From the NCBI RefSeq assembly GCF_003334785.1, contig NZ_QOWV01000007.1: a stretch of DNA of 64,000 bases, one strand, 5' to 3'. The position numbers were made by a program, and so were the translations under genes. Below the pieces are notes generated by a model that saw nothing but the letters and a program-made list of their open reading frames with translations, was not told where the DNA came from and did no database searches. The DNA comes from Escherichia coli. GTDB taxonomy: Bacteria; Pseudomonadota; Gammaproteobacteria; Enterobacterales; Enterobacteriaceae. Each line of letters begins with the position of its first letter. Within the stretch, counting starts at the first letter, position 1. Below, one piece after another: positions 34,261 to 55,959 of the stretch.

Positions 34261-36924
34261 TTACGCCAGACGCGGGTTAACTTTATCTGCATCGATGTTG
34301 AATTTGGCGATTGCGTCAGCAACCACTTTCTTATCGATTTCGCCACGTTTAGCCAGTTCGCCCAGCGCCGCAACCACGACATAAGAAGCATCAACTTCGA
34401 AGTGGTGACGCAGGTTCTCACGGCTGTCGGAACGACCGAAGCCATCAGTACCCAGTACGCGGTAGTCGTCAGCCGGTACGTAAGTACGGACCTGCTCAGC
34501 GAACAGTTTCATATAGTCGGTAGATGCCACTGCCGGAGCGTCGTTCATCACCTGAGCGATATACGGAACGCGCGGAGTTTCCAGCGGGTGCAGCATGTTC
34601 CAGCGTTCACAATCCTGACCATCACGCGCCAGCTCGGTGAAGGAGGTCACGCTATAAACGTCAGAACCTACGCCGTAATCTTTCGCCAGGATCTCAGCTG
34701 CTTCACGGACGTGACGCAGGATAGAACCGGAGCCGAGCAGCTGAACTTTACCTTTGCTACCTTCAATAGTTTCGAGTTTGTAGATACCTTTACGGATACC
34801 TTCCTCAGCACCTTCCGGCATTGCCGGCATGTGGTAGTTTTCGTTCAGCGTAGTGATGTAGTAGTAAACGTTCTCTTGTTTTTCACCGTACATACGCTCC
34901 AGACCGTCATGCATGATGACAGCAACTTCGTAAGCGTAAGCCGGGTCGTAAGAGATACAGTTCGGGATAGTCAGCGACTGAATGTGGCTGTGACCATCTT
35001 CGTGCTGCAGACCTTCGCCGTTCAGGGTGGTACGACCGGAAGTACCGCCGATCAGGAAGCCACGCGCTTGCTGGTCGCCAGCCGCCCAGCACAGATCGCC
35101 AATACGCTGGAAGCCGAACATCGAGTAATAGATGTAGAACGGGATCATCGGCAGATTGTTGGTGCTGTAAGAGGTCGCCGCTGCCAGCCAGGAACAACCT
35201 GCGCCCAGCTCGTTGATCCCTTCCTGCAGAATCTGACCTTTCTCGTCTTCTTTATAGTAAGCAACCTGCTCGCGGTCCTGCGGGGTGTACTGCTGACCGT
35301 TCGGGCTGTAAATACCAATCTGACGGAACAGACCTTCCATACCGAAAGTACGCGCTTCGTCGGCGATGATCGGTACCAGACGATCTTTGATCGACTTGTT
35401 CTTCAGCATCACGTTCAGAGCACGAACGAAAGCGATAGTGGTAGAGATCTCTTTGCTCTGCTCTTCCAACAGCGCGCCGAAGTCTTGCAGGCTCGGCAGC
35501 TCAAGCTTCTCGGTGAAGTTCGGCTGACGGCTTGGCAGATAACCGTGCAGTTTCTGACGCTGAGCGTGCAGATAGGTATGCTCTTCAGAACCTTCCGGGA
35601 AGGTGATGTACGGCAGTTTTTCGATATCTGCATCAGACACCGGCACATTGAAACGGTCGCGGATATGACGCACACCGTCCATGTTCATTTTCTTAACCTG
35701 GTGCGCGATGTTTTTACCTTCAGCCGCGTCGCCCATGCCGTAACCTTTAATGGTATGAGCAAGGATTACTGTCGCTTTGCCTTTGGTTTCCTGCGCTTTC
35801 TTGAATGCAGCGTAGATTTTCTTCGGATCGTGACCACCACGGTTCAGTGCCCAGATCTGCTCGTCAGTCCAGTCTGCAACCAGTGCTGCGGTTTCAGGAT
35901 ATTTACCGAAGAAGTGTTCACGAACGTACGCACCATCTTTCGATTTGAAGGTCTGGTAGTCGCCGTCAACGGTTTCGTTCATCAGCTGGATCAGTTTACC
36001 GCTGGTATCCTTACGCAGCAGTTCATCCCAACGGCTACCCCACATCACTTTGATCACGTTCCAGCCAGCACCTTCGAAGATGCCTTCCAGTTCGTTGATG
36101 ATCTTGCCGTTACCGGTGACCGGGCCGTCAAGACGCTGCAGGTTACAGTTGATAACGAAGACCAGGTTATCCAGTTTTTCACGGGTAGCGATGGTGATCG
36201 CACCTTTGGATTCCGGTTCGTCCATTTCACCGTCACCGAGGAACGCGTAAACGGTTTGTTTAGAGGTATCTTTCAGGCCACGGTGTTCCAGATATTTCAG
36301 GAATTTAGCCTGGTAAATAGCACCAATCGGACCCAGACCCATAGATACGGTCGGGAACTGCCAGAATTCCGGCATCAGTTTCGGGTGCGGATAGGAAGAG
36401 AGGCCATTGCCGTGAACTTCCTGACGGAAGTTATCCAGCTGCTCCTGAGTCAGACGACCTTCCAGGAAAGCACGAGCGTACACGCCCGGGGAGATGTGGC
36501 CCTGGAAGTAAACCAGGTCGCCGCCATCCTGCTCGTTGCGTGCACGGAAGAAGTGGTTAAAGCACACATCATAAATGGTTGCGGAAGACTGGAAGGACGC
36601 CATATGGCCGCCCAGTTCGAGGTCTTTTTTCGACGCACGCAGCACCGTCATGATGGCGTTCCAGCGGATAGCTGAACGAATACGGCGTTCCAGTTCCAGA
36701 TTACCCGGATACTCCGGTTGTTCTTCAACGGGGATGGTGTTGATGTAGTTGCTGATACCTGTGCCTGCGGCTACGTTTACACCGCCTTTGCGGGCTTCAG
36801 CAAGCAGTTGGTCGATCAGATACTGAGCACGCTCAACACCTTCTTCACGGATGACCGATTCGATCGCCTGGAGCCAGTCGCGAGTTTCGATCGGATCCAC
36901 GTCATTTGGGAAACGTTCTGACAT
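34261..36924 (-). CDS. aceE: Pyruvate dehydrogenase E1 component
   Basis: 887 aa, full-length match to thiamine-diphosphate-dependent E1. Confidence 0.95.
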
Positions 36925-37084
36925 GGGTTATTCCTTATCTATCTAATAACGTTGAGTTTTCTGGAACCTGTCCCATTGAACTCTCGCCGGAAAGCTCAAT
37001 AAGACAGGTTCTACGTTTAGTTGCCGCGCTTTTATATGCGCTTGATTTACAACATCTTCTGGATAATTTTTACCAGAAAAATCA

Positions 37085-37849
37085 CTAATTCTTTCGTTGC
37101 TCCAGACGACGCAGAGAACGCTCACGGCGGCTCTCTTCACGACTTCTGTCGAGCAAAATTTCTTCGATAAAGGCCAGATGGCGATGCGATGCTTCGCGCG
37201 CTTCTTCCGGCTTACCGGCCATAATCGCTTCAAATATGCGGGTGCGGTGACTACTCACCAGCGGCAGCATCTCGCGACGCGAATAGAGCAATTCGAAGTT
37301 CTGGCGGACATTCTGGGCCAACATCGGCTCCATACACCTTAGCAGATGAAGCAGAACCACATTGTGGGCCGCTTCGGTGACGGCAATCTGATACTGGAGT
37401 ACGGCGTTTGATTCCGCGTCCAGATCGCCAGACTGCTGCGCCAGCTCTATGGCGTGGTGGAGTTCACGGATGCGTTCCTTGTCTTCATCGGTACTACGCA
37501 GCGCGGCGTAATAAGCGGCGATACCTTCCAGGGCGTGTCGTGTTTCGAGCAAGTCATACTGTGACTCAGGATGGTCGGAGAGCAGCTCCACCAGCGGATC
37601 GCTGAAGCTTTGCCATAGGCTGCTCTGGACAAAAGTGCCGCCACCCTGGCGACGAAGCAACAAGCCCTTCGCTTCGAGACGTTGAATCGCCTCACGCAAG
37701 GAGGGACGGGAGACGTCAAACTGTTTTGCCAGTTCGCGTTCCGGTGGGAGTTTTTCGCCCGGGCGGAGAGTGCCTTCGAGGATCAAAAACTCCAGTTGCT
37801 GCTCAATCACATCGGAGAGTTTTGGTTGGCGGATTTTGCTGTAGGCCAT
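37085..37849 (-). CDS. pdhR: GntR-family pyruvate-responsive repressor
   Basis: ORF track trimmed to [14 protein letters not shown]; 254 aa with N-terminal HTH. Confidence 0.93.
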
Positions 37850-37880
37850 GAGTTCCTGTCTTAAGCCACTTGCCGAAGTC

Positions 37881-37897
37881 AATTGGTCTTACCAATT
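37881..37897. promoter_or_regulatory. PdhR operator (GntR-type palindrome AATTGGT-N3-ACCAATT)
   Basis: aattggtcttaccaatt read directly, 32 bp upstream of the pdhR start codon. Confidence 0.75.
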
Positions 37898-38301
37898 TCA
37901 TGTCTGTGACGCTAAAGTAACAAAGTATTCACCTTATGTCCATACAGGTTTTGATTGAAATCATGAAACTGTGCACATTTTAACAACTTGACATATATAA
38001 CGTTTCAAAGTTGTAACTATGCACAAATGTAGACTTTACGTAGGAAAGGAGTTTTTTAACGATTATTAAACTATAAAAATCCGAATTGAACCGATTCACT
38101 TACCAATTTTGTGATTTTTAATTCAATTAAAACGAATTTAAATTCATTCTACATATTGAGAGGGGTTGAGGCTGAGCTTTACAAACGGTTTCTTTTTAAG
38201 CAACTCATCTTCAACCATGCATAAAGCGGGTGCATTCGCTGCCGCATACCATTATTCTTGATCTGACGGAAGTCTTTTTGTAACAATTCAAACTTCTTTG
38301 A

Positions 38302-38319
38302 TGTAAACAAATTAATACA
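38302..38319 (+). promoter_or_regulatory. Candidate TyrR box upstream of aroP
   Basis: tgtaaacaaattaataca partly matches the TGTAAA-N6-TTTACA consensus, about 70 bp upstream of the aroP start. Confidence 0.35.
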
Positions 38320-38389
38320 ACAAACGGAATTGCAAACTTACACACGCATCACTGCGTAGATCAAAAAAACAACCACCGCACGAGGTTTC

Positions 38390-39763
38390 ATGATGGAAGG
38401 TCAACAGCACGGCGAGCAGCTAAAGCGCGGCCTTAAAAACCGCCATATTCAGCTTATCGCGCTGGGTGGCGCGATAGGGACCGGGTTATTCCTGGGTAGC
38501 GCCTCCGTAATACAGTCCGCAGGGCCAGGGATTATCCTGGGTTACGCCATTGCTGGTTTTATCGCCTTTCTGATCATGCGTCAGCTGGGTGAAATGGTGG
38601 TCGAAGAACCTGTCGCAGGCTCCTTTAGCCACTTTGCTTATAAATACTGGGGCAGTTTTGCCGGTTTCGCCTCTGGCTGGAACTACTGGGTACTGTACGT
38701 TTTAGTTGCCATGGCTGAGCTGACTGCCGTGGGTAAATACATTCAGTTCTGGTATCCGGAAATCCCCACCTGGGTTTCTGCCGCCGTATTCTTTGTGGTG
38801 ATTAACGCCATCAACCTGACCAACGTTAAAGTGTTTGGCGAGATGGAGTTCTGGTTTGCCATTATCAAAGTTATCGCGGTGGTAGCGATGATCATCTTCG
38901 GCGGCTGGCTGCTATTCAGTGGCAACGGCGGCCCGCAGGCGACCGTTAGCAACCTGTGGGATCAGGGTGGTTTCCTGCCGCACGGCTTCACCGGGCTGGT
39001 GATGATGATGGCGATTATCATGTTCTCGTTCGGTGGTCTGGAACTGGTGGGGATCACCGCAGCAGAAGCTGATAACCCGGAGCAAAGTATACCGAAAGCA
39101 ACTAACCAGGTTATCTACCGCATCCTGATTTTCTATATTGGTTCGTTAGCCGTTCTGCTCTCACTGATGCCGTGGACCCGCGTTACCGCCGATACCAGTC
39201 CGTTTGTGCTGATCTTCCACGAGTTAGGCGATACCTTTGTGGCGAATGCGCTGAACATCGTGGTACTGACTGCGGCGCTCTCCGTGTACAACAGCTGCGT
39301 ATATTGCAACAGCCGTATGCTGTTTGGTCTGGCACAACAGGGTAATGCGCCAAAAGCGCTGGCGTCTGTCGATAAACGTGGTGTACCAGTAAATACCATT
39401 CTGGTGTCTGCACTGGTAACGGCGTTGTGCGTACTGATTAACTACCTTGCCCCAGAGTCCGCTTTCGGACTGTTAATGGCGCTGGTGGTATCTGCACTGG
39501 TAATCAACTGGGCGATGATTAGCCTGGCGCATATGAAATTCCGTCGCGCCAAGCAGGAACAAGGCGTGGTAACTCGCTTCCCTGCTCTGCTTTATCCGCT
39601 GGGTAACTGGATCTGCCTGCTGTTTATGGCGGCGGTACTGGTGATTATGCTGATGACCCCAGGAATGGCGATTTCGGTATACCTGATCCCGGTATGGCTG
39701 ATCGTGTTAGGTATCGGCTATCTGTTTAAAGAGAAAACCGCCAAAGCCGTAAAAGCGCATTAA
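38390..39763 (+). CDS. aroP: Aromatic amino acid permease (APC family)
   Basis: 457 aa, 12 predicted transmembrane helices. Confidence 0.95.
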   Translation: MMEGQQHGEQLKRGLKNRHIQLIALGGAIGTGLFLGSASVIQSAGPGIILGYAIAGFIAFLIMRQLGEMVVEEPVAGSFSHFAYKYWGSFAGFASGWNYWVLYVLVAMAELTAVGKYIQFWYPEIPTWVSAAVFFVVINAINLTNVKVFGEMEFWFAIIKVIAVVAMIIFGGWLLFSGNGGPQATVSNLWDQGGFLPHGFTGLVMMMAIIMFSFGGLELVGITAAEADNPEQSIPKATNQVIYRILIFYIGSLAVLLSLMPWTRVTADTSPFVLIFHELGDTFVANALNIVVLTAALSVYNSCVYCNSRMLFGLAQQGNAPKALASVDKRGVPVNTILVSALVTALCVLINYLAPESAFGLLMALVVSALVINWAMISLAHMKFRRAKQEQGVVTRFPALLYPLGNWICLLFMAAVLVIMLMTPGMAISVYLIPVWLIVLGIGYLFKEKTAKAVKAH

Positions 39764-48304: not shown

Positions 48305-48507
<203 letters not shown>

Positions 48508-48512
<5 letters not shown>

Positions 48513-48897: not shown

Positions 48898-48918
48898 TGT
48901 CTTAAACCTATAAAAAAG

Positions 48919-48936
48919 GCGCAGAATCCTGCGCCT
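48919..48936 (-). terminator. Hairpin with flanking U/A runs between secA and mutT
   Basis: aaaaaa-ggcgca-gaatcc-tgcgcc-tttt read directly. Confidence 0.55.
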
Positions 48937-48956
48937 TTTACTTCAACAGTTAGCTT

Positions 48957-51662
48957 TTATTGCAGGCGGCCATGGCACTGCTTGTATTTTTTACCAGAAC
49001 CGCACGGGCAAGGATCGTTACGTCCTACTTTGCGCTCTCCGGTTTGCGCCGCCAGTGCAGCTGCGGCTGCAGAGTCGTCATCCTGATGGCTAAGCTGCTG
49101 CATTTGCGCTAAACGCTCGGCTTCCATACGACGCTGTTGTTCCAGCTCCTCAACCTCTTCAGGCATACGTACCTGAACTTTGCTCAGCGTACTGATAACT
49201 TCATATTTCAACGACTCCAGCATCGCTGCAAACATGGAGAACGATTCACGTTTGTATTCCTGCTTCGGATCTTTCTGTGCGTAGCCACGCAGGTGGATAC
49301 CCTGACGCAGATAGTCCATCGCTGCCAGGTGCTCTTTCCACAGGGAGTCAAGCGTTTGCAGCATGACGCCTTTCTCGAAGTGACGCATCATCTCAGCACC
49401 AACCACTTCTTCTTTACGCTGATACACTTCGATGGACTGCGCCAGAATGCGCTCACGCAGCGTCTCTTCATGCAGTTCTGGTTCTTTATCCAGCCACTCG
49501 GCAATTGGCAAATCGAGGTCGAAATCGTTCTTCAGACGTTCCTGCAGCCCCGGAATATCCCACATTTCTTCCAGCGACTGTGGTGGAATGTAGGCATCAA
49601 TGGTCGCTTTGAACACATCTTCACGAATGCTGTTAATGGTTTCGCTCACATCGCTGACATCCAACAGTTCGTTACGCTGGGAGTAAATGGCGCGACGCTG
49701 ATCGTTAGCCACGTCATCATATTCCAGCAGTTGCTTACGAATGTCGAAGTTACGGCTTTCAACTTTACGCTGGGCGTTGGCAATCGCTTTAGTCACCCAC
49801 GGGTGTTCAATGGCTTCGCCTGGCTTCATACCCAGTTTACGCATCATGCCGGATACTCGGTCGGAAGCAAAAATACGCATCAGCGCATCTTCCATCGACA
49901 GGTAGAAACGGGAAGAACCAGCATCCCCCTGACGACCAGAACGACCGCGCAACTGGTTATCGATACGACGGGATTCGTGACGCTCGGTACCGATGATATG
50001 CAGGCCACCTGCTTCCAGTACCGCATCGTGACGTACCTGCCAGTCGGCTTTAATTTTTTCAATTTGCTCTGCGGTCGGATTTTCCAGCGCGGCAACTTCT
50101 GCCTGCCAGCTACCACCGAGCACAATATCTGTACCACGACCCGCCATATTGGTCGCGATAGTCACCGCAGCCGGATAACCTGCCTGAGCAACAATCGCCG
50201 CTTCGTTGGCGTGGAATTTGGCGTTCAGGACGTTGTGCTTAATACCGGCTTTGGTCAGTTCGTTTGACACCAGCTCCGATTTTTCGATGGAGATAGTACC
50301 CACCAGCACCGGCTGGCCTTTCGCAGTACGTTCTTTGATATCTTCAATGATCGCCTGAATTTTTTCCGCTTCAGTCATGTAGACCAGGTCCGGCAGATCT
50401 TTACGAATCATTGGACGGTTGGTCGGAACAACGACGGTATCCAGCTTGTAGATTGAGCTAAATTCGAAAGCTTCGGTATCAGCAGTACCGGTCATCCCCG
50501 CCAGTTTTTCATACAGACGGAAGTAGTTCTGGAAGGTGATCGAAGCCAGCGTTTGGTTTTCGTTCTGGATCTGCACACCTTCTTTCGCTTCCACAGCCTG
50601 GTGCAGACCATCGGACCAGCGACGGCCCTGCATGGTACGACCGGTGTGTTCGTCAACGATGATAACTTCACCATCTTTAACGATGTAGTCGACGTCACGG
50701 GTAAACAGCGCATGAGCGCGCAGCGCCGCCGTTACGTGGTGCATCAGCATGATGTTGGCCGGAGAGTACAGAGACTCCCCTTCATCCATGATGCCCTCTT
50801 TCACCAGCAGTTCTTCAATCAGCACCAGACCACGTTCGGTCAGGTTCACCTGGCGAGATTTTTCGTCCACCGAGAAGTGGCCTTCGCCCTGGAAGGTTTC
50901 GGAGTCTTCTTTTTCCTGACGGATCAGGTGCGGAATAATTTTATTCACGCGTTTATACATTTCCGAGCTGTCTTCTGCCGGGCCGGAAATGATCAGCGGT
51001 GTACGCGCTTCATCGATCAGGATGGAGTCCACTTCGTCCACCAGCGCATAGTGCAGTTTACGCTGTACACGTTCTTCAGGGCTGAACGCCATGTTGTCGC
51101 GCAGGTAGTCAAAGCCGTATTCGTTGTTCGTACCGTAAGTGATGTCAGCTGCGTAAGCTTCGCGCTTTGCCGGTGCTGGCATGCCCGGCAGGTTGATACC
51201 GACAGTCAGGCCAAGGAATTCAAACAGCGGACGGTTGTTTTCGGCGTCACGTTGCGCCAGGTAGTCGTTGACGGTAACTACGTGCACGCCTTTACCGGTT
51301 AGTGCGTTCAGGTAAGCAGGCAGCGTTGCGGTCAGGGTTTTTCCTTCACCGGTACGCATTTCGGCGATGCAGCGTTCGTTAAGAACCATACCGCCGAGTA
51401 ACTGAACGTCGAAGTGACGCATACCAAAGACGCGCTTACTTGCCTCACGTACCACGGCGAAAGCTTCCGGGATCAGATTTTCCAGCACTTCGCCTTTTTC
51501 CAGACGTGCACGAAACTCTGCGGTTTTCCCTTTCAGTTCTTCGTCGGAGAGTTTTTCCATCTCCGGTTCCATGGCATTGATGATGTTGACCACTTTGCGC
51601 ATCCGGCGCAGGGTGCGATCGTTACGACTACCGAAAACTTTAGTTAACAATTTGATTAGCAT
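48957..51662 (-). CDS. secA: Preprotein translocase ATPase SecA
   Basis: 901 aa; C-terminal zinc-binding [14 protein letters not shown]. Confidence 0.97.
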
Positions 51663-53484: not shown

Positions 53485-54636
53485 TTAATCAGCTTGCTTA
53501 CGCAGGAATGCTGGGATATCCAGATAATCCGGCTCTTTCGCAGTTTGCGGCGCATTGTCATTCACGACTTTAGCAACCGGCTTCTGCTCCTGGGTCAGCG
53601 GAGCCATCCCATGCTGCTGGTAGCGATCCATCACTGGCTGCTGAACCTGCTTATTGGTCACCAGAGTGATTTCAGGACGTTTGTCCATGCCGATACCTGT
53701 CGCAACAACGGTTACGCGCAGCTCGTCATTCATATCCGGGTCAAGAGAAGTACCGATAACCACAGTCGCGTTGTCGGAAGCAAATGCACGGATGGTGTTA
53801 CCTACCGTTTCGAACTCATCCAGACGCAGGTCGAAGCCCGCCGTGATGTTAACCAGCACGCCGCGCGCGCCAGACAGGTCGATATCTTCCAGCAGCGGAG
53901 AAGAGATAGCCATTTCAGCAGCTTCTTCCGCACGGTCTTCACCGCTCGCCACGCCAGAACCCATCATTGCGTAGCCCATCTCAGACATTACGGTGCGTAC
54001 GTCTGCAAAGTCCACGTTCATCAAACCCGGACGAGTAATCAGTTCAGCGATACCTTGCACAGCGCCTTTCAGTACATCGTTCGCTGCGCCAAACGCATCC
54101 AGCAGGGAGATACCGCGGCCCAGAACTTTCAGCAGTTTGTCGTTCGGGATAGTGATCAGAGAGTCCACATGCTTGGACAGTTCAGTGATCCCCTGCTCCG
54201 CGAATGCCATACGCTTCTTGCCTTCAAAGTTGAAAGGCTTAGTGACGACAGCAACGGTCAGGATACCCAAATCTTTTGCCACTTCAGCGACGACTGGTGC
54301 TGCACCTGTACCGGTACCACCACCCATACCCGCAGCAATAAAGACCATGTCTGCACCTTCCAGCGCCGCACGCAATGCATCGCGATCCTCATCAGCCGCA
54401 TTGCGGCCAACTTCTGGATTAGCGCCAGCGCCCAGTCCTTTGGTGATACCGCTACCGATTTGAATCGTCTGTCCAACCGCTGTTTTACGCAGCGCTTGTG
54501 CATCGGTATTTACCGCGAAGAATTCAACACCTTCAATGCGCTCGCGCACCATGTGTTCAACAGCATTACCGCCGCCGCCGCCGACGCCGATGACTTTAAT
54601 CACCGCGTCATTGGTAAGTTCCATTGGTTCAAACAT
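53485..54636 (-). CDS. ftsZ: Cell division GTPase FtsZ
   Basis: 383 aa; tubulin signature GGGTGTG. Confidence 0.98.
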
Positions 54637-54696
54637 AGTTTCTCTCCGATTTGTGCCTGTCGCCTGAGGCCGTAATCATCGTCGGCCTCATAAAAA

Positions 54697-55959
54697 TTAA
54701 AACTCTTTTCGCAGCCAACTATTGAGTCGCTTGATCCACGAGCCAACTGATGCTGTAACACGTTTTTCTACTTCAGCTTCACCGTTAAGATGTGACTCTT
54801 TCCCATAGTGAAGCAATCCCACCGCCGTCGAATAATACGGCTCCTGAGCATAATCCGTTAAACCGGTAATGTTCAGCGGCGCGCCGATACGCACTTGCGT
54901 ATGAAACACGCGCTGAGCACAGGCTGCAAGACCTTCGATCTGCGCTGCGCCACCGGTTAATACAATGCCTGCCGCCAGGTGATGTTTAACCCCTTGTTGG
55001 CGAAGCTTTTCCTGCAACTGCAATATCTCTTCGTTGACCAGGTTGAGCAGCTCGGTATAGCGCGGCTCGATCACCTCTGCCAGTGTCTGACGTTGCAGAC
55101 TCCGTGGCGGACGACCACCTACGCTCGGCACTTCCACGCTCTCATCTTTTCCAACGATGGAACCCAGCGCACAACCGTGGCGAACTTTAATCGCTTCGGC
55201 GTCGCTTGGCGGCGTGCCAAAGGCGTAAGCGATATCACTGGTCACGACATTGCCAGCATAAGGAATTACCTTAGTGTGGCGCAATGCCCCACCGGTATAA
55301 ACGGCGATATCCATTGTACCACCACCGATATCGACGACGCAGACACCCAGTTCACGTTCATCTTCCGTCAATACCGAATAACTTGATGCCAGTCCGGCAA
55401 ATATCAGTTGGTCAACTTTCAGCCCACAACGTTCAACCGCTTTGACGATGTTTTTCGCCATATCGTTGTGACATGTGATCAGGTGCACTTTTGCCTGCAT
55501 CCGCACGCCCGAAAGTCCTACCGGATTCTTGATCCCTTCCTGATAGTCAATCGCATACTCTTGCGGGATCACATGCAGCACACGATGCTCATCGCGCACA
55601 CGCACCGATTTCGCGGTATGGACGACGTTTTCCACATCTTCTTGCGTCACTTCTTCTTCAGAAATAGGCACCATACCAATTTCATTCTGGCAGCTGATGT
55701 GCTTACCAGAAAGCGCCAGATATACCGAAGAGATCTGACAATCTGCCATCAATTCTGCCTGGTCAATGGCGCGTTGTACGCACTTGACCACGGATTCGAG
55801 GTCGTTCACCCCGCCTTTATCCATACCACGCGACGGGCAGCTGCCCACGCCAATGATATTGACCATACCGTCGGGCAGAACTTCCCCTACTAAAGCGGCA
55901 ACCTTCGCGGTACCAATCTCCAGTCCTACTACCAGTTTTCTGTCCGTCGCCTTGATCAT
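54697..55959 (-). CDS. ftsA: Cell division protein FtsA (actin-like ATPase)
   Basis: 420 aa; 4-nt overlap with ftsQ. Confidence 0.97.

Follow-up and report, generated by a model that had tools for sequence, protein, structure and literature searches.

RNase III cuts hairpins in several mRNAs, among them the leaders of rnc, pnp and metY-nusA-infB and the gap between sdhB and sucA. The gap between pdhR and aceE in Escherichia coli shares with these a helix of 20 bp or more, staggered cuts in both arms, a destabilised downstream message and a 5' end that mimics the product of a promoter. No sequence homology connects these hairpins with the aceE leader, and they form an analogous class, not a family. 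Unlike them, the aceE leader has a helix base whose sequence is invariant across genera and two conserved U·G pairs beside the cut.

Three other described systems are close to this locus. One comprises the sites far upstream of sucA and aceE that are recognized by the small RNA GlnZ; the aceE leader has an 11-nt match to the GlnZ seed, but this block is conserved beyond the range in which GlnZ represses. Small RNAs derived from 3' UTRs, such as GlnZ, SdhX and CpxQ, likewise occupy a place after a stop codon within an operon and have discrete ends made by an endonuclease. However, the gap does not share their intrinsic terminator, and its first 43 nt are variable or absent. Finally, the Rfam family tp2 matches the same locus over its full length, but it is classed as an sRNA gene, is modeled on the antisense strand, and includes outer helices without covariation. 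The "aceE" RNA motif of Pseudomonas is a further structured candidate upstream of the same gene.

We interpret the gap as a cis-acting leader of the pdhR-aceEF-lpd mRNA in which an RNase III hairpin is combined with a GlnZ docking site and a conserved 5' UTR, and we assign this reading a probability of roughly 0.78. This is a real, functional and strongly conserved element that has already been described, as an aceE leader that is processed by RNase III and targeted by GlnZ. Its anatomy, conservation, covariation, strand asymmetry and complementarity to GlnZ are the results of the present analysis; RNase III cleavage, the effect on half-life, repression by GlnZ, and the 5' and 3' ends are taken from published papers. 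Our additions are comparative evidence for the sense strand, the adjoining of the published ends, and the tolerance of the hairpin apex for large repeat insertions.

The pdhR-aceE gap and its conserved hairpin

The DNA analyzed here ("the window") is a stretch of 64,000 nucleotides from an E. coli genome, in which pdhR (37085..37849) and aceE (34261..36924) are encoded on the minus strand. The open reading frames and the MG1655 annotation delimit between them an intercistronic leader of exactly 160 nt (36925..37084, minus strand), the length given in an initial annotation of this DNA. A sense-strand position p corresponds to window coordinate 37085 - p, and the MG1655 (MG) coordinate is 159941 minus the window coordinate, which places the gap at MG1655 122857..123016. 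The gap had also been called AT-rich and structured, and both descriptions are borne out. Its G+C content is 0.388, compared with 0.558 in pdhR and 0.530 in aceE, and 4% of all 160-nt segments across the 64 kb are as AT-rich. Its sense strand folds with an energy of -52.0 kcal/mol (z = -5.88; none of 200 shuffles is as good), and its antisense strand with -40.1 kcal/mol (z = -3.81 relative to shuffles). We agree as well with its placement inside an operon with read-through, pdhR-aceEF-lpd, which is known to be co-transcribed (PMC2759082).

Within E. coli, the segment 36800..37300 is found at an identity of at least 99% in 5,421 of the 5,424 matching complete genomes. The DH5alpha assembly NZ_CP045741.1 matched only 38% of this 501-nt query, split into two pieces, a sign of possible rearrangement or misassembly at pdhR-aceE. 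Three matches to the same query are on records labeled as plasmids. For comparisons across species, we used 80 pdhR loci, one per species, from Enterobacteriaceae and two Serratia, and extracted from them 77 pdhR-aceE gaps of 119-599 nt.

Conservation along the sense strand is uneven. Positions 1-43 after the pdhR stop codon are variable and can be aligned in about half of the sampled genera. Here, the centroid fold contains a 7-bp hairpin just past the stop codon (37056..37079, minus strand; about 50% alignment occupancy), which is at best a weak terminator. Positions 44-72 are near-invariant in the conservation map and consist of a small hairpin followed by the block GCGCGGCAACUAAACG. The small hairpin, GCGC-N8-GCGC (37026..37041, minus strand), belongs to the centroid fold, lies directly upstream of the GlnZ site, and has both GCGC arms conserved; Serratia and Shimwellia have a different sequence at this site and keep the fold of a small hairpin. 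The near-invariant block (37014..37029, minus strand) contains the complement of the GlnZ seed. It is followed by the main hairpin, at sense positions 74-121 (36964..37011, minus strand), with a 22-bp stem and a 4-nt loop that are identified by folding, covariation and published RNase III cleavage. The remaining 39 nt, 3' of the hairpin (36925..36963, minus strand), form an aceE 5' UTR that is highly conserved in the conservation map and the alignment, and that includes the Shine-Dalgarno sequence AAGGAA (36931..36936, minus strand).

The initial annotation had placed its feature at 36925..37244, and thus also over pdhR codons 202-254, the last 53 of the gene (37085..37244, minus strand). In this half of the interval, we detected nothing extra: no Rfam match was found, and synonymous codon diversity is 0.449, compared with 0.412 in the rest of pdhR (permutation p for lower diversity = 0.87). 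A hidden element in the 3' coding part of pdhR was therefore rejected on the negative outcome of the synonymous-diversity test. A small RNA derived from the pdhR 3' UTR was likewise rejected, with no terminator, no conservation right after the stop codon, and codons 202-254 unconstrained. At the other end of the gene, pdhR codons 1-15 (37805..37849) have about half the average synonymous diversity of the gene (0.20 versus 0.42), as expected from constraints on translation initiation.

The main hairpin is present throughout the sample. Its base, GAACCUGUCUU...GACAGGUUC, occurs in all 77 gaps, and the hairpin ends 34-41 nt before the aceE ATG. The stem has 22 contiguous pairs in the window, and among 70 unique orthologous hairpins, the minimum is 20 bp and the median 22. 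It is thus as long as the substrates of RNase III, which are intramolecular helices of about 20-22 bp or more. When 38 unique hairpins of 48 nt are compared, the 14 basal rungs are almost invariant, and the 8 apical rungs vary by paired changes; 98.4% of the cells are paired, and 7 pairs have changed on both sides. None of 500 shuffles reached either the observed pairing or the observed covariation score, and sliding of the 3' partners lowers pairing to 37-49%. In Serratia, a compensatory change from A-U to G-C occurs in the otherwise invariant base of the hairpin, and both conserved U·G pairs have become U-A.

Because each G·U pair reads as a C·A mismatch on the complementary strand, non-Watson-Crick pairs reveal which strand is functional. 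The 38 unique 48-nt hairpins provide 836 cells for this test. The sense strand has 713 Watson-Crick pairs, 110 G·U pairs and 13 mismatches, and the antisense strand has 713, 8 and 115, respectively. When the two invariant U·G rungs are removed, the G·U counts are 35 and 8, respectively. The hairpin of the window has an energy of -32.7 kcal/mol on the sense strand versus -20.4 kcal/mol on the antisense strand, and in 66 of the 70 unique hairpins, the sense version is more stable than the antisense version. RNAalifold, applied to 50 sequences, yields -35.07 kcal/mol with 22 pairs, 9 of which show compensatory changes, for the sense strand, and -19.93 kcal/mol with 17 pairs, 6 of which show compensatory changes, for the antisense strand of the same sequences. 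The G·U asymmetry, the energies and RNAalifold all favor the sense strand; therefore, the selected structure belongs to the operon mRNA, and it is not on the strand of the Rfam model.

The apex of the hairpin tolerates long insertions. These lie exactly at the apex in 16 of the 77 loci, and each one extends the helix; none destroys it. In 15 loci, the insert is a palindromic repeat of about 120 nt, and the hairpin is extended to as many as 77 bp (L015, L031, L032, L045, L046, L051, L052, L057, L067-L069, L071-L073 and L078; in L071, for example, 2330-2466). One of these, L067, carries a shorter variant of the repeat, in a 121-nt hairpin. The remaining locus, L019, has a longer and different insert, in a hairpin of 231 nt. 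Inserts of this kind are compatible with a double-stranded RNA substrate, and they would split a promoter. The hairpin of Klebsiella pneumoniae (L064) is 66 nt long and has ends that resemble those of a deleted repeat copy. The repeat of about 120 nt occurs in up to 4 unannotated places per E. coli genome. It matches parts of the ERIC1R and ERIC2 primer sequences and appears to resemble ERIC/IRU elements.

The tp2 catalog entry and the antisense strand

The sole curated RNA family that matches at this locus is Rfam tp2 (RF02030), and no other Rfam family was found at E < 1 on either strand of 36400..38400. The match covers 36927..37040 on the plus strand, antisense to the operon, with 103.4 bits (gathering score, 50) and model positions 1-114; on the sense strand, only the palindromic part of the hairpin scores, with 29.5 bits. 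In all 20 other species tested, tp2 matches at this same place between pdhR and aceE, and in the same orientation. Elsewhere in the window, Rfam PssrA (RF02797, "plasmid-encoded Shigella sRNA A") matches 54628..54717 on the minus strand with 105.5 bits, which maps near 105.2 kb of MG1655, in the cell-division gene cluster. The minus-strand segments 48315..48508 and 48912..48981 hold two tandem naRNA4 matches (RF02564, 78 bits each) and one STnc40 match (RF02057, 84 bits).

The initial annotation mentioned a small RNA predicted at the pdhR-aceE junction, and a cataloged RNA of this kind, tp2, has indeed been reported here, but on the strand antisense to the operon. The locus does not appear to be an independent sRNA gene, and the selected structure is on the strand opposite to the Rfam model. 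The accompanying doubt about a discrete RNA was justified, for comparative and published evidence favor a cis-acting mRNA element. The name "tp2" would then be the one that a comparative-genomics screen gave to the conserved structure, with the Rfam model built on the antisense strand. In the literature, Tp2 is traced to the QRNA comparative screen of Rivas et al. (2001). Older K-12 annotation probably placed tp2 at 122697..122857 on the minus strand; the right edge of the initially annotated interval is MG 122697, and these coordinates would account for it. The current MG1655 RefSeq record carries no tp2 annotation, though ncRNAs such as sgrS and glnZ are present in it.

Tp2 might nonetheless be a genuine, independent sRNA that is transcribed from the plus strand and acts either as a fully complementary partner of the aceE leader or as a trans-acting regulator of other mRNAs. 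Rfam types the entry as "Gene; sRNA" and places it on the other strand, which we count against the leader reading, and the plus-strand match is both strong, at 103 bits, and constant in its location across the 20 of 20 species. An RNA from this strand would also carry UUUAGUUGCCG, identical to the seed of GlnZ. The structure itself speaks differently. With 8 G·U pairs versus 110 on the opposite strand, the modeled strand fails as the carrier of the conserved structure, and the energies and RNAalifold agree in favoring the sense strand. The Rfam structure leaves unpaired exactly the C·A positions and adds two outer helices of 4 bp each. On the antisense strand, pairing in these helices is 94-96%, conserved U·G pairs included, which is a point in favor of an antisense RNA, but the helices show no compensatory pairs and are absent from the RNAalifold consensus.

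Signals for transcription of such an RNA are similarly mixed. A relaxed search found, as the best sigma-70-like site, CTGACA (36918..36923) and TCTAAT (36942..36947) with an 18-nt spacer (36918..36947, plus strand), a 10/12 match that could start an RNA near 36954 and that we also count against the leader reading. Its -10 hexamer, however, lacks the A at position 2, its -35 hexamer is the complement of the aceE Met-Ser-Glu codons and so is fixed by them, and 31 of 44 unique orthologs have a spacer of 19-20 nt. By our own estimate, a 10/12 match is expected about 0.2 times by chance in the search space. A stricter promoter scan found no promoter belonging to an sRNA, and no terminator-like site, including any rho-independent terminator with a U tail, was found on either strand of 36925..37084.

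Published observations on Tp2 speak against an independent trans-acting sRNA. Wild-type cells gave 2-9 non-stranded reads across the hairpin apex (PMC5371410), and the Term-seq tables contain no MG1655 minus-strand 3' end here (PMC7815308). The growth defect of a tp2 deletion is a polar effect on aceEF that could not be complemented in trans (PMC9426594), and cells that overexpressed Tp2 showed no phenotype when screened for biofilm, motility and fimbriae. In a 2025 study, Tp2 TPM was low in all 8 of 8 conditions (PMC12266141). Differential expression of Tp2, which would favor an antisense RNA, was described in one report; there, Tp2 decreased in parallel with the aceEF operon, and the report describes no assay that distinguishes the strands. 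In Salmonella Typhi, tp2 lies next to aceE and was scored as "required or ambiguous", which fits polarity. A paper on Hfq (ARN)x motifs lists tp2 as having none. We regard an independent Tp2 sRNA as distinctly unlikely. "Tp2" is probably not an antisense sRNA gene, and the historical Tp2 signal would be a fragment of the operon mRNA. Because the conserved structure is on the sense strand, the Rfam tp2 model is probably inverted, a reading based on comparison of sequences.

RNase III processing, the putative internal promoter and termination

Gordon et al. (2017) identified MG 122961 (window 36980, at the hairpin apex) as the top new RNase III site, with 2-9 reads in the wild type versus 13,954 in the rnc mutant by non-stranded RNA-seq (PMC5371410). 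Cleavage by RNase III occurs in vivo, and cleavage of an in vitro transcript was verified; the half-life of aceEF is about 3 min in the wild type versus about 5 min in rnc, and the rnc mutant has higher pyruvate dehydrogenase activity in early stationary phase (PMC5371410). The main text of a paper on the in vivo rules of RNase III (Altuvia 2018) mentions neither aceE nor pdhR.

Published RNA ends locate the cuts. A 5' end of aceE was mapped by 5' RACE to a G at -48 before the ATG (window 36972; PMC2759082). Term-seq, which is strand-specific, found a 3' end at MG 122968 (window 36973, -49) in two conditions, and another on the 5' arm at MG 122941 (window 37000, position 85; minus strand); both belong to the sense strand, and the opposite strand has no listed end from 122880 to 122999 (Adams et al. 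2021, PMC7815308). The 3'-arm cut thus falls at 36972..36973 on the minus strand, where the 3' end at -49 directly adjoins the 5' end at -48. The two 3' ends (positions 85 and 112) appear to lie 3 bp apart across the helix, whereas the canonical stagger of RNase III is 2, and this difference counts against our reading of the leader.

The 5' end at -48 has long been listed as the start of an internal aceE promoter. Under this explanation, the conserved feature would be mainly DNA, a sigma-70 or sigma-38 promoter, and the hairpin would be incidental. The end at -48/-49 was seen by S1 nuclease mapping as well as by 5' RACE and was called PdhR-independent (PMC2759082 and references cited there), and the authors who described the RNase III site still considered the promoter real (PMC5371410). 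Yet the same cut reproduces the mapped "transcription start", and RNase III makes the same 5' end in vitro (PMC5371410). Adjoining ends at -49 and -48 are the signature of an endonucleolytic cut, and the fact that a sense 3' end abuts the 5' end therefore favors processing over a promoter.

The sequence at the expected promoter positions points the same way. The best pair of hexamers for a start at -48, CTGTCT-16-GAGAGT, matches at 6/12, and shuffled sequence is equally good. The putative -10 element lies in the apical stem, which varies by paired, compensatory changes, and a T at its sixth position is present in just 14 of the 38 unique hairpins. The apex inserts described above (the repeat in 15 of 77 loci and the longer insert of L019) would part the -35 from the -10 while the helix is kept. 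ArcA sites are upstream of pdhR, outside the gap, according to the ArcA paper. We consider it unlikely that the feature is mainly a promoter. What has long been listed as an internal aceE promoter is probably a site of RNase III processing, and we infer that the -48 end is purely a product of processing, although a weak promoter may contribute beside it.

A terminator or attenuator that uncouples pdhR from aceEF, with the short RNA as its terminated product, is very unlikely. It has been proposed that pdhR may end in a terminator (PMC2759082), and the 7-bp hairpin after the pdhR stop codon would be a candidate, but this hairpin lies in the part of the gap that is alignable in about half of the genera, and a search of the gap detected nothing that resembles an intrinsic terminator. 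After the 22-bp hairpin comes CAGAAAAC instead of a U run; an intrinsic terminator or attenuator would have a G+C-rich stem and a U tract, and what stands after the hairpin is CAGAAAACUC. Moreover, the strong 3' ends are inside the arms of the helix, not past a hairpin, and the operon is known to be co-transcribed (PMC2759082). A region of Rho termination has been reported on the sense strand at MG 122909 (window 37032, minus strand), with a modest Rho score of 2.05 (p = 2e-10; PMC7815308), which suggests partial Rho-dependent attenuation between pdhR and aceE. This coordinate falls in the loop of the GCGC hairpin that directly precedes the GlnZ site.

For the RNase III-processed leader, the following mechanism can be proposed. 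RNase III would cut the 22-bp sense-strand hairpin on both arms, at positions 85/86 and 112/113, and so would separate pdhR from aceEF-lpd, shorten the half-life of the latter, and create the -48 end that was historically read as an internal aceE promoter. The conserved 39-nt 5' UTR downstream carries the ribosome-binding site. The single-stranded, invariant block CGGCAACUAAA directly upstream of the hairpin would be the docking site of the Hfq-dependent sRNA GlnZ.

The GlnZ site and consequences for the operon

GlnZ nucleotides 2-12 (UUUAGUUGCCG) are a perfect 11-nt complement of sense-strand 37016..37026 (-102 to -92), for which the chance expectation is 0.007. The complementarity was established by an exact-complement search in place of RNAduplex, which was rejected for this purpose: applied to full-length GlnZ and the leader, it returned meaningless whole-length duplexes that were no better than those of shuffles. 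To repress aceE, GlnZ pairs at C-99, on the 5' side of the RNase III site, as supported by the compensatory mutants G12C and C-99G, and the processed aceE mRNA escapes GlnZ (Miyakoshi et al. 2022, PMC9731577). In the window, C-99 is 37023. As GlnZ would dock upstream of the hairpin that is cut, it would act only on uncut mRNA.

The block complementary to GlnZ is kept in all sampled genera, including Salmonella, with one change from U to C in Serratia. However, GlnZ1 of Salmonella does not repress aceE (PMC9731577). The conservation of the block is thus greater than its known partner GlnZ explains, and because it is conserved in Salmonella without repression by GlnZ1, GlnZ may not be the only or the original partner.

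The pdhR-side fragment left by RNase III, which has the GlnZ block at its 3' end, is the only plausible discrete RNA of the sense strand, and it may once have been seen as "Tp2". A speculative proposal, which we think improbable, is that this fragment serves as a decoy, either for GlnZ or for a different sRNA or protein recognizing GGCAACUAAAC. If it did, expression of pyruvate dehydrogenase would be coupled to nitrogen status across Enterobacteriaceae.

Studies that treat "Tp2" as a trans-acting sRNA probably measure or disrupt the aceE leader, and the data affected would include deletion libraries, differential-expression lists and target predictions. As an RNase III-processed leader, the element would set the survival of the mRNA for pyruvate dehydrogenase E1, E2 and E3 relative to that for the repressor PdhR, at a central metabolic node.
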